Assembly: GCA_039180345.1 (NCBI GenBank)
Contig: JBCDDK010000096.1
Location: forward strand, 1 to 26,265
Length of the DNA: 26,265 nt
Direction of reading: 5' to 3'
Source of the DNA: Cyanobacteria bacterium P01_G01_bin.39
Lineage (GTDB): Bacteria > Cyanobacteriota > Cyanobacteriia > Cyanobacteriales > Xenococcaceae
Position numbers and translations under genes: made by a program. This document shows, one piece after another, positions 18,422 through 22,840 of the stretch (positions are counted from its first letter, which is position 1; every line of letters starts with the position of its first letter). Below the pieces are notes generated by a model. The model saw only the letters and a list, made by a program, of their open reading frames with translations, searched no databases and was not told where the DNA came from.

Positions 18422-21400
18422 ATGAACTATACTAATTATCCAGCAAACAGCTTGGATGTTTTCGGTTGGAATTTTTCCTTGATTGGTGATATTAAATTAA
18501 CAACTGATAATGACGGTAATGTCTATGTTCTTAACTCAGGAATTGAATCATTATTACCTCAGCAACTTTTAGGTACAGCACTATACAATACTGCTGATTT
18601 ACAATCACCATTAGCAGAATTACAAAGTAATCCCTACAGCGTAAGTTCACAACAGCTTATAAGACCTTATTCCTCTAATAAGCGAATATTTAAACAACAA
18701 GCTGATGGTAGTTATCAGGGTGATAGTGGTACTTTAATTTGGAATGTTGACCATTACGAATTAGTAGAAGCTGACGGTACAACAATTGTTTTTCGTCCTG
18801 ATGGCAAATTAAACTATGTCAAAGACAGTAATGGTTATCGTTTGACGGCTGGTTACACTGGTGATTTACTAACTCAGCTTTCAGCCAGTAACGGAGATAG
18901 TTTTACTTTTGACTATAATTCTGATGGGCGAATTGAAACTGTTACAGACCAAAGAGGACAAACTAATTCTTACCACTATGATGAAACAGGTCAATATTTG
19001 CTAAGCATTGAAGATGCTAACGGTACAACTGGCTTTAGTTACAATAATCCTTTTGATCCAACATTAGTAAGTAGTGTTAACTATGGCGACGGGTCAAAAC
19101 TCAGCTATGACTATGACCATGCAGGACGTTTACAGCAGGTGATTTATGGCGAAGGGAGAGAAGCTTTAGCCTATACCTATAGCTATGACGACAATGGCGG
19201 GGTAACTATAATTAATCCTGATGGTGGGACTAATCAACAACTACGCAACGAACAAGGACAGGTTAGTCAAACAATTGATGCCAATGGACGCATTACTAAC
19301 TATAGTTATGATGCTGCGGGTAATCTGACGGGGATTGATGGCGAGTTGGAATATAGTGCTGGTTTTACCTATGACGATGAAGGTAATATCACCAGTCAGA
19401 CCAATGCTTTGAATCAAACTACTCATTTTACCTATCAAGCACAGACAAATAAGTTAGCTAGTTTTAAAGATGCTCATGGTAATGATGTTCTCTATAGTTA
19501 TAACGGTCGCGGAGATCTCAGCAGAATTACTTATGAAGATGGTACTCAGGATAAGTATTTTTATGATGATCAGGGACTGTTAATTAGATCAGTTAATCGT
19601 CGCGGTCAGAAAATTCGTTACGAATACAATGATAGATATCAAGTTACTAAAGAAACTCACAGCGATGGAAGAATTATTGAATATGAATATGGAGCAAATA
19701 CTGGGCTGCTTACTTCTATCAGTGATAATAATAGAGAAGATCATACCCAATTCAATTATAATCAAGCCGAAAATAAATTTTCTATTATTCATCCTAGCGG
19801 GTTTGTACATAGTTATATTTTCGATAATTTAGGCAGAAAAACTCAAGTTACTATTCAAGATGGTAGAAATATCTTCACCACCAACTACAGCTACGATAGC
19901 TTGGGTAGACTAGACCAATTGACTGACGGCAATGGTAATCTAATCGTTGACTATGACTACCATCCTCTAACTGGACGGTTAGCCAAAGAAACAAACGGTA
20001 ATGGTACATCTACTACTTACAGTTACGACCTTGCAGGACAGTTAATCAGTTTAGTTAACGCTCAAGCCGATGGTACGATTAATTCTCGCTTCGACCATAC
20101 CTACGACAATCTTGGCAGACGTACCGAAGTTAGTACTTTAGATGGAACATGGAGTTATAGCTATGATCTATCAGGACAGTTAACAGGTGCAGTATTCGCT
20201 TCAACTAATCCTGAAATTGATAGTCAAGACTTGACCTATGTTTATGACGCTGCGGGTAATCGGACTCAAACTATTGTTAATGGAGTTACAGAAAACTACA
20301 GCACTAATAATCTCAATCAATATCAATCCGCAGGGACGACTATTTATAACTATGACCTGGATGGTAATTTAACCTCTAAAACTGAAGGTAATAAGACTTG
20401 GGCGTATAGTTATGATGTCAACAATCGTCTGGTTGAAGTTATTGATTCGGATAATAACCTAACCCAATATGAATACGATGCTTTTGGCAACCGCACTGCT
20501 ACTATTTATAATGGTCAGCGGACTGAATACTTGATTGATCCTTTTGGTTACGGGGATGTAATTGCTGAATATGATGGCGATGGTAATCTAATTGCGAACT
20601 ACAATCATGGTATTGGGTTAGTCAGTCGTACTGATGCTAACAACATTCAGGCTTTTTATGACTTTGACGGTACTGGTTCGACAGCCGCTTTAACAGGACA
20701 GGCGGGTGCTGAACTTAATAGCTATGCTTACCGTCCTTTTGGGGAAGACTTCTATGAAGTAGAAACCGTTGATAACTCTTTTGAATACATCGGACAGTGG
20801 GGCGTGACTGAGGAAGTTAATGGTTTAGACTTCATGAGGGCAAGATATTATGACAGTCACAGTGGCAGGTTTGTAGCAAGTGATCCCATTGGTTTGCAGG
20901 GGCAAGATACAAATTTTTATCGTTATGTAAATAATGATCCTGTTAGTTATATCGATCCCGAAGGTACTTTAGCTTTCTTAGCTGCGCCTGTTCTCATTTC
21001 CTTTGGTAGTGCCGCGGGAGGAATCGGGACAGGTCTCTTGTTAACTTGTCTTGGAGGTCAAGGAGGTAGTGCTGCTACGAATGCTCTATTTTTAACTGCT
21101 CTTATCGCAGCGGGAAGTGGCGTTCCAGGAGGCGCACAATTTGGTGCTGGTCTAAAATTTGGAGAATACATTTGCAATGCTAGTGATTCTTTGGCAGAAC
21201 CACCACCCTACGCCGAAGAGGCAGAAGATAGATATGACGATTCACAACCGCCAGTGCCACGACCCGCTTCACCTTTAGTTCTCGACCTAGATGGCGATGG
21301 CATCGAACTTACTGCAGTCAATACCACCAACGTGTTCTTCGATGTGGATAACGATGGTTTCCGCGAAGCAACTGGTTGGGTACAGGCTGATGATGGCTTG

Positions 21401-22840
21401 TTGGTGCTAGACCGTAATAATGACGGTTATATCAACGACAATTCCGAATTATTTGGTAACTTTACTACTAGCGGGTTTGTCGAGTTACGGGTAATTGACG
21501 ATAACGGCGACAGATTTATTGATGCTAACGATAGTAGATTTGCTGACCTACAAGTGTGGCGGGATTTGGATCAAGATGGTCGTTCCGATGCTAATGAACT
21601 TTATTCTTTAGCCGAATTAAATATTACTGGTCTTAACGCCCGTGCTAATCAAGTTAATGTTGTCAATGCTGGCAACATTATTGAAGAAACAACTTTCTAT
21701 CAGCTAGCGGACGGCACCACCAGAGAACTAGCAGATCCTTGGTTCCAGATTAATCAGCTTCATTCTTACTACGACCACAACTCTACTTATAACGAACCTG
21801 TAGTTTTGAATGAAGCAATATTCAAGCTTCCTAACCTCAGAGGCTATGGTCGTTTACCAGACTTACGAATTGCTATGGCAAAAGATGCCCAGTTACAGGG
21901 ATTAGTTCAGTCTTTTAGCGATCAAGTAGCTAGCGGTAATATTGCAGATGGTCTAAACTTAGCTACGTCGATTCTATATCATTGGGCAGGAGTAGAAGAT
22001 ATCGATCCTGACAGTCGCGGGATTAATGTTGATGGTCAAAAACTAAGATTTTTAGAGAAATTTATGGGTCGTAACTGGCGTAATGCCAGTGATGATAACC
22101 TATCAAGTCCATCTTATCGTCAGAAAAGAGATGGTGAAGATTTATTGAATCCACTGTTATCACAATTAGAAACTAGACTGCTAGTTCAGGCAGTTGACTC
22201 TCCTGTTAATTACAACACAGTAACTGAAAGCTATGTTTTCAATGGTTCAATTACTGAAGCTGCTAGTCAATTTAATCAACTTATTGCTCAATCTAGGATT
22301 ATCTACAGTCCAGAAACAGAACTCAAGGCACTGGCATTGGCTCAATATATTCGTCAAGAAGGTGAAGATACCAACGGGATATTTGGTGATGCTGGTAATG
22401 ACTACTTGAGTGATTATACTTCTGAAGCAGCAAAATTATATGGCTTTATGGGTGATGATAATTTAGCTACTGGTATGGGCAATGACTACTTATTTGCGGG
22501 TTTAGGTAATGATTATTTAACATCAGGTTCAGGAGAAGATACCCTCTACGCTCAAGCAGGAGACGACACTCTCATAGGTGGAACAGGTAACGATATTTAC
22601 TATGGTGGTGCTGGCAATGATTTAATTGAAGATATTTTAAGTAATAATTTCTTCGGTGCTGCTAACAATCCTGACAACGATACAGTAGATGGTGGTTCTG
22701 GCAATGATACCCTCATTGGTGGCAGAGGCAATGATCTCTACATCTTTAATCAGGGCTATGGTAACGATGTAATTTTAGATTATAGTGAACATTCCTATGG
22801 ACCCTTTGTTCCTAATGCTATTACAAGTGTCAGATATTGA
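18422..22840 (+). CDS. RHS/YD-repeat protein with a non-enzymatic-looking C-terminal region containing calcium-binding and RTX repeats
   Basis: It contains dozens of YD repeats (YxYDxxGxL...). The canonical RHS core end is [20 protein letters not shown]...[19 protein letters not shown], with DPEG at aa 845-848 (nt 20954-20965). The remaining 624 aa comprise a Gly-rich hydrophobic stretch, a Pro-rich linker, five DxDxDG-type loops and GGxGxD nonapeptide repeats. Confidence 0.9.
   Translation: [1472 protein letters not shown]

Follow-up and report, generated by a model that had tools for sequence, protein, structure and literature searches.

A cyanobacterial RHS protein with a hypervariable hydrophobic segment between its predicted shell and a FrpC-like SPM-RTX cassette

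The window analyzed here (positions 1–26,265 of contig JBCDDK010000096.1 from Cyanobacteria bacterium P01_G01_bin.39) carries an open reading frame (ORF) of 1472 amino acids (nt 18,422–22,840, + strand), whose product consists of an RHS core, a hydrophobic segment (hereafter designated X), a self-processing module (SPM), and RTX repeats, that is, an RHS-X-SPM-RTX architecture. The product is 100% identical to an NCBI protein (P0121, 'RHS repeat-associated core domain-containing protein') from the metagenome-assembled genome (MAG) of the marine Cyanobacteria bacterium P01_G01_bin, and the same protein is also present in one Logan assembly. All domains of this gene described below lie on the + strand.

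The N-terminal part is a YD/RHS repeat shell (aa 87–780, nt 18,680–20,761) with ten Pfam RHS_repeat matches; within aa 1–848, PF05593 matched at E=3.6e-57, together with TIGR01643 of NCBIfam. It leads into the Rhs-associated core domain (aa 770–848, nt 20,729–20,965), where TIGR03696 (Rhs_assc_core) matched at E=1.3e-18 over profile positions 1–75 of 76 (NCBIfam), and where the aspartyl-protease motif, DPIG(821)-X20-DPEG(845), is intact and ends at nt 20,965. In the AlphaFold2 (AF2) model of aa 1–1117, the shell had a predicted local distance difference test (pLDDT) score of ~90 or higher, and a Foldseek search with the predicted shell retrieved the Rhs cocoons 8qjd, 7q97, and 8cp6 at E=1e-44 to 1e-48, so that aa 87–780 are predicted to fold as a beta-cocoon. 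Pfam TEN_YD-shell matches were also obtained for the protein, and Foldseek also picked teneurins and one bacterial teneurin-like protein. By analogy with the Rhs effector Tse5, cleavage by the RHS protease is predicted just after DPEGT. At the N-terminus, which is kept in the orthologs P0122–P0124, searches of Pfam and NCBIfam found no signal peptide, PAAR, VgrG-related, LXG, or DUF6531 plug domain, and hydropathy showed no hydrophobic N-terminal window. The head thus has a genuine RHS core and no recognized N-terminal trafficking domain.

A first-pass annotation of this DNA, made from the letters alone, had placed the canonical end of the RHS core at nt 20,965 and divided the 624-residue tail beyond it into a glycine-rich hydrophobic stretch, a Pro/acidic linker, a series of calcium-binding loops, and RTX nonapeptides; the core end and all four parts are present (Pfam, NCBIfam, and motif positions). 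The first part is the Gly/Ala/Leu-rich segment X (aa 849–925, nt 20,966–21,196), recognized from its hydropathy, GxxxG motifs, and variability. X contains no charged residue over aa 849–911 (63 residues), and is the sole region of the protein with a 19-residue Kyte-Doolittle mean above 1.2 (maximum, 1.83). Six GxxxG motifs lie in the hydrophobic stretch, and Gly and Ala together make up 33% of aa 849–950, namely X plus the linker (9.9 kDa). The stretch is plausibly a membrane-active element, in line with its earlier description as possibly membrane-inserting. In the AF2 models of both the tail and aa 1–1117, X was disordered (pLDDT, 21–42). Such a disordered segment beside a confidently modeled cocoon and SPM resembles the cargo left unresolved in cryo-EM maps of Rhs proteins (PMC10684867).

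X is also the part of the gene that varies. In comparison with the related locus L002 (MAG J06621_8), DNA identity was 75–90% over the RHS core to nt 20,965, fell to 42–55% with many gaps over X and the linker (nt 20,966 to about 21,272), and returned to 72–88% from the SPM onward (nt 21,273), so that the divergent block runs from the DPEG motif of the RHS core to the SPM's first proline. Moreover, two paralogs of Romeria aff. gracilis (P0007 and P0015) shared 98% identity over the last 200 core residues, 100% over the linker, and 98% over the SPM, but 23–28% over X. A hydrophobic Gly/Ala-rich segment of 58–129 residues lies between DPxG and the linker in nine of nine RHS-SPM fusions where X could be delimited, and is absent from relatives with M23-type heads. 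Judged from these alignments, the variable block bears the signature of a polymorphic-toxin cassette, but is internal rather than terminal, and its boundaries coincide with the two predicted processing sites. X plus the linker (aa 849–950) is therefore the likely cargo.

The Pro/acidic linker ([13 protein letters not shown]...PRPAS; aa 926–950, nt 21,197–21,271) carries a conserved motif and a helix (tail residues 81–92) with an AF2 pLDDT of 94. It is followed by the SPM (aa 951–1117, nt 21,272–21,772), whose DxDxDG loops (at aa 955, 974, 997, and 1048, plus DDNGD; nt 21,284 onward) had previously been taken for EF-hand-like units. They belong instead to one domain, the SPM of FrpC and ApxIVA: a phmmer search matched PDB 6sjw/6sjx at E=7.7e-34 across the entire 177-residue module, Foldseek returned the same structures at E=1.7e-13 with TM-scores of 0.76–0.78, and the precomputed Pfam annotation of the loop region is PF26745, 'SPM'. 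Indeed, alignment to 6sjw indicated that four EF-hand-like Ca2+ sites are retained (DLDGDG, DRNNDG...E, DDNGD...D, and DLDQDG...E). Among the 'narrow port' residues listed in PMC7078468, the equivalents of W, L, G, G, and D579 are kept, and D478 is replaced by Asn.

The last residue of the linker, Ser950, stands where the scissile Asp is found in canonical SPMs (PRPAS950|P951LVLDLDGDG, nt 21,269–21,274). In FrpC, the D414A mutation abolishes cleavage (PMC7846742). Since Ser950 replaces this essential Asp, the canonical anhydride route is excluded in the SPM of the window, which in sequence and fold belongs to the SPM family yet lacks the Asp-Pro bond that defines it. Of 111 homologs, in a sample skewed to relatives of the Ser-type query, 60 have Ser immediately before the first proline of the module, 40 have Asp, and 7 have Cys (over the survey, 58–60 Ser and 38–40 Asp). 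On a neighbor-joining tree, this residue switches at least 15 times, and SPMs that are 80–83% identical can differ there. Ser-type SPMs have an upstream motif of their own, F-x-x-A-[EQ]-x-x-x-S|P, and Asp-Pro SPMs occur among the RHS relatives (P0007, P0015, P0072, and P0144). As far as this sequence survey goes, the Ser of the window protein is no one-off defect. The interchange of Ser or Cys with Asp among close relatives suggests another reactivity or a non-cleaving, calcium-switch role; the cleavage experiments in PMC7078468 and PMC12538545 cover the Asp-Pro modules of Neisseriaceae and ApxIVA. The SPM has also been engineered, as 'NeissLock', for protein ligation.

Between the SPM and the RTX block lies a conserved helical domain of ~200 residues (aa 1118–1318, nt 21,773–22,375), overlooked in the first-pass annotation and predicted with a pLDDT above 90 in the AF2 model of the tail, which was built on 115 homologs (mean pLDDT, 85.7; predicted TM-score (pTM), 0.85). 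Foldseek found no fold match for this domain in the PDB. Its first 70 residues are homologous to the FrpA segment right after the SPM (E=3e-5), and hence the domain belongs to the SPM cassette; it is also retained in the consensus of the homolog alignment. The RTX calcium-binding beta-roll (aa 1319–1452, nt 22,376–22,777) contains ~10 nonapeptides (aa 1322–1452) and matched Pfam HemolysinCabind (PF00353) at E=1.3e-15, NCBIfam RTX_toxin, and the RTX blocks of CyaA and a lipase in the PDB, in keeping with the beta-roll of the AF2 model. No nuclease, deaminase, ADP-ribosyltransferase, or other enzyme or toxin fold, and nothing besides the SPM and RTX domains, was detected in the tail, including aa 916–1320, by Pfam, NCBIfam, sequence searches of the PDB, and AF2 combined with Foldseek on PDB and viral structures, which agrees with the earlier view that the tail holds no recognizable enzyme toxin. 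Weak Pfam matches to BiPBP_C, a HisZ-like family, and PSMbeta were below the cut-offs and were rejected.

Homologs of the tail are numerous, with 471 at E<1e-5 among the candidates scored. PF26745 is present in 119 of the 120 tail homologs listed, most of which have RTX repeats and many PF06594. Their heads are unrelated to one another: peptidase M23 (as in the best match, P0001), lipase, cadherin, SdrD-like, LysM, SLT transglycosylase, and RHS. Conservation starts ~25 residues before the SPM, at 'PPPYA..ED.F', a motif shared by M23-, RHS-, and other-headed relatives, and the proteins are annotated as 'calcium-binding protein', 'Ca2+-binding RTX toxin-like protein', or FrpA/FrpC. These relationships indicate that most of the tail would be no toxin but a cassette for calcium-triggered processing and secretion that many proteins share. 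The first-pass annotation had named a common annotated module among the outcomes that would refute its reading, and downstream of aa 925, where many non-RHS heads share the cassette, that reading is refuted.

Kuban et al. (PMC7078468) describe the SPM as confined to some of the RTX proteins. A survey for RHS proteins with RTX tails, which the first-pass annotation had suggested, found the RHS core joined to the cassette in at least 12 further proteins (P0125, P0134, P0144, P0007, P0015, P0008, P0043, P0072, P0142, P0163, P0166, and P0390). The RHS-SPM fusions with an organism name are all cyanobacterial and include Romeria, Nostocaceae, and Merismopedia. The order of core, hydrophobic X, linker, and SPM recurs among them, with the junction always in frame at the same motifs and the flanks conserved. 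A separate search for the head-to-SPM junction returned matches of ~730 residues or shorter, a basis unsuited to counting long fusions, and no plasmid record in PLSDB spans both halves of the fusion. Searches of PMC and bioRxiv found no published RHS-SPM or RHS-RTX fusion; Rickettsia pLbAR_38 was considered as an RHS-RTX precedent and rejected, since only an 'RHS-like' toxin is encoded there beside a type I secretion system (T1SS). The RHS-X-SPM-RTX genes for P0144 and P0134 (loci L004 and L005) are situated amid ParA/ParB, MobC/NikA, Toprim primase, integrase, and DUF1016 genes, which are plasmid or mobile-element genes.

Among known systems, FrpC and FrpA of Neisseria meningitidis and ApxIVA share with the window protein the order of passenger, SPM, conserved post-SPM segment, and RTX. 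The SPM of the window is ~43% identical to that of FrpC, with the four Ca2+ loops, W451, G477, G491, and D579 conserved. Unlike FrpC, the window protein has an RHS cocoon and a hydrophobic peptide as its passenger, Ser in place of Asp414, Asn in place of D478, and a cyanobacterial host, and its C-terminal end is missing. Tse5 of Pseudomonas aeruginosa resembles the other half of the protein in combining an Rhs cocoon with a DPXG protease and a hydrophobic disordered segment (Foldseek to 8cp6, E=5e-44). It is a type VI secretion system (T6SS) Rhs effector, in which a cocoon with the motif DPXG-X19-DPXG encloses a disordered, membrane-inserting, non-enzymatic, pore-forming cargo, cleaved at DPXGL|I (PMC10684867). 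Given this precedent for a hydrophobic pore-forming cargo, a pore-forming RHS payload would not in itself be the unusual logic that the first-pass annotation had seen in it. Tse5 differs, however, in having an N-terminal PAAR-like domain, in its T6SS route, and in a 16-kDa cargo that is the true C-terminus; in the window protein the candidate cargo is internal, amounts to 9.9 kDa, is followed by the SPM-RTX cassette of ~57 kDa, and is dissimilar in sequence.

Small peptides offer a further likeness to X. The Gly-rich class II microcins are small Gly/Ala-rich hydrophobic, ABC-exported, membrane-active peptides. CdzC and CdzD, described as glycine-zipper bacteriocins exported by a T1SS (PMC5380434), are likewise small, Gly/Ala-rich, hydrophobic, and membrane-active, and X is similar to these peptides in composition and GxxxG motifs. 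Both groups are free-standing or leader-bearing, rather than placed between an RHS shell and an SPM, and no homology to X was detected.

On these grounds, we propose, with a confidence slightly short of an even chance, that the gene encodes a polymorphic RHS protein in which a FrpC-like cassette serves as the export and processing handle, replacing an N-terminal domain for the T6SS, the type VII secretion system (T7SS), or the Sec pathway. RTX proteins are T1SS substrates that fold on extracellular calcium (PMC3034196 and PMC7078468). Type I export is proposed because the RTX end is the only trafficking-type element in the protein, and the earlier remark that an RTX block is unusual on an RHS protein and points to type I secretion was borne out. 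The RTX end would direct type I secretion, and both the RTX and the SPM domains would then fold on extracellular calcium. The RHS protease would cut after DPEGT, where X would start within the cocoon as cargo, and the cassette would stay outside the shell as a handle, receptor-binding, or processing part. Solved Rhs cavities of 32,000–35,000 cubic angstroms hold cargo of 15–16 kDa (PMC10684867), and thus only X, and not the 67-kDa tail, is plausibly caged. X would insert in membranes as a glycine-zipper or microcin-type toxin, in the manner of the Tse5 C-terminal region (Tse5-CT), and in the Asp-Pro relatives the SPM may clip off the cassette, freeing X on both sides. Extended to a class, the proposal would make RHS-X-SPM-RTX proteins type-I-secreted polymorphic toxins of T6SS-less bacteria, each with a caged glycine-zipper peptide of ~100 residues excised by the RHS protease and the calcium-triggered SPM, and with the Ser-Pro and Cys-Pro SPMs (the majority of the homologs here) using a non-anhydride chemistry such as an N-to-O or N-to-S acyl shift; in this general form we regard it as doubtful.

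Such a fusion is of interest because knowledge of RHS cocoons comes almost wholly from T6SS effectors, Tc toxins, and teneurins, and because it bears on how RHS proteins exit cells without those systems, as in cyanobacteria. The recurrent SPM-RTX fusion offers a testable answer, namely type I secretion with calcium-triggered maturation, and points to a candidate cargo that is very small and has a predicted self-cleavage site on either side.

Several observations weigh against this proposal. In the cargo itself, X gave no family or toxin match in Pfam and NCBIfam even at E up to 10. The Asp-Pro scissile bond is absent from the SPM of the window, where Ser-Pro stands instead. A folded cocoon could not traverse a T1SS, and its export would require delayed folding. 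The protein stops 20 residues past the last RTX repeat, at a point where an HCBP-like block and additional RTX blocks extend the relatives by 90–600 residues; because these C-terminal blocks are absent, the T1SS signal may be missing in the window copy. Searches of the intact relatives for a T1SS C-terminal target domain gave only generic RTX and serralysin-type matches (NCBIfam). Neither HlyD, TolC, nor a clearly T1SS-type ABC gene was found in the window or in four related loci, including those of P0144, P0134, and L002, and the one ABC gene of the window encodes a generic 605-residue exporter (nt 14,418–16,235, − strand). T1SS substrates, it should be added, need no linked transporter genes. 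No convincing immunity gene was found beside the RHS gene in the window or in L002; downstream of the RHS gene, the window has the lectin-like remnant followed by a gene for an M16 peptidase, and L002 has what we take to be TatA-like and PsbH-like genes. Finally, relatives are often truncated, interrupted by stops, or chimeric, so that the locus may be decaying.

The last of these points leads to the alternative that recombination in an RHS rearrangement hot spot left the window copy, and possibly many relatives too, without function, as a junction that has no delivery logic. RHS pseudogene fragments lie upstream of the gene, its truncated 3' end is followed by an out-of-frame lectin-like domain, several relatives are disrupted (by truncation in P0122–P0124, P0125, and L002, by an in-frame stop in L003, and by chimera formation in P0003), and transposase and plasmid genes are found near relatives. 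The 4.4-kb reading frame is nevertheless open, and the order of RHS core, X, linker, and SPM is repeated in at least 12 proteins from several genera with an in-frame junction at the same motifs. Functional rhs genes are, moreover, normally accompanied by orphan or truncated copies, which also counts against this explanation. We consider it rather unlikely.

A second alternative, which we judge unlikely, is a teneurin-like surface or adhesion protein without any toxin, in which the YD shell is structural, X is a plug, linker, or membrane anchor, and the SPM-RTX part, joined by the lectin-like domains that intact relatives have, provides calcium-dependent attachment or clip-and-link adhesion to other cells. 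The TEN_YD-shell matches in Pfam and the Foldseek matches to teneurins and the bacterial teneurin-like protein speak for it, as does the fact that the C-terminal domains of teneurins sit outside a YD shell of similar size, being too large for its interior. The aspartyl-protease motif is, however, intact in the window protein and degenerate in teneurins, which further differ in having a Sec or transmembrane (TM) N-terminus, a beta-propeller and FN plug, an inactive protease, and no RTX or SPM. The H-type-lectin-like ends of relatives and the lack of an immunity gene in the window and L002 would fit adhesion, as would the clip-and-link activity proposed for adhesion by FrpC and ApxIVA (PMC7078468). 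On the other hand, X is swapped wholesale between paralogs that are otherwise 98% identical, which is typical of toxin/immunity diversification and not of a plug or anchor, and the cassette also carries peptidoglycan-hydrolase heads (M23, SLT, and LysM) that resemble antibacterial effectors.

The model of the first-pass annotation, in which the entire 624-residue, calcium-folding, and possibly pore-forming tail is the shell-encapsulated payload, is highly improbable: the tail does follow the canonical DPxG core end, where RHS cargo usually starts, but at 67 kDa it far exceeds the 15–16-kDa cargo of solved cocoons (PMC10684867), everything from the linker onward is common to shell-less proteins, and the variability is confined to aa 849–950.

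The aberrant C-terminal end of the gene (20 residues and the stop, nt 22,778–22,840) became evident from comparison with P0001, P0002, P0004, P0125, and L002. Overlapping it in another frame is an ORF for an H-type-lectin-like domain (nt 22,785–23,351, + strand; Pfam H_lectin, E=1.1e-5). This domain of ~165 residues had 4106 representative matches, nearly all inside or C-terminal in long proteins and often in tandem, and in P0279 and P0282 an RTX-HCBP block is followed by two H-type-lectin-like domains. The out-of-frame ORF probably represents what was once the 3' end of the RHS-RTX gene, which the window copy appears to have lost by a frameshift or a deletion, be it genuine or introduced in assembly.

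Upstream of the gene, decayed paralogous RHS fragments, including an ORF at nt 17,308–17,742, were recognized as direct repeats (nt 16,567–17,742, + strand). They match nt 18,430–18,710, 18,967–19,152, and 20,062–20,135 of the main gene at 71–93% identity, and one RHS fragment shares 79% amino-acid identity with aa 183–244 of the main protein. The decayed copy is mosaic, with one ORF joining a TM-like segment to an RHS fragment.

Rearrangements of several kinds were seen among the relatives. P0122–P0124 are truncated, and P0125 and L002 lack their N-terminal part. In L003 (nt 9500–10,400; Pleurocapsa sp., JBHJJG010000417.1), a 911-residue RHS gene and the SPM-RTX gene of P0002 share one frame with a single stop codon between them, and the stretch from DPSGL to the linker is not hydrophobic but rich in Gly and Ser. 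P0003 (814 residues, on a 26,269-bp contig) is a chimera in which the RHS repeat '...DKYVYNADGLL' enters mid-SPM sequence ('[19 protein letters not shown]...'), which suggests recombination at a 'DGLL' microhomology common to RHS repeats and the SPM. In L006 (nt 7512–14,331), P0124 (753 residues), a truncated ortholog of the RHS head of the window, lies immediately upstream of the M23-peptidase-SPM-RTX gene of P0001 and a DDE transposase gene; it looks as if the 3' part of the RHS gene had been displaced by another head with its cassette.

Of the neighboring genes in the window, an ORF of 84 residues just before the RHS gene (nt 17,783–18,037, − strand) encodes, by eye, a protein with two TM segments and no family match; if a membrane immunity protein is encoded close by, no other candidate for it was seen. 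Farther downstream, a 426-residue ORF (nt 24,931–26,211, − strand) had no Pfam match and encodes Gly/Ser/Asn-rich, beta-helix-like repeats that appear by eye to be filamentous-haemagglutinin-like, and upstream lies a gene for an NB-ARC/TPR STAND NTPase (nt 12,197–14,311, + strand).

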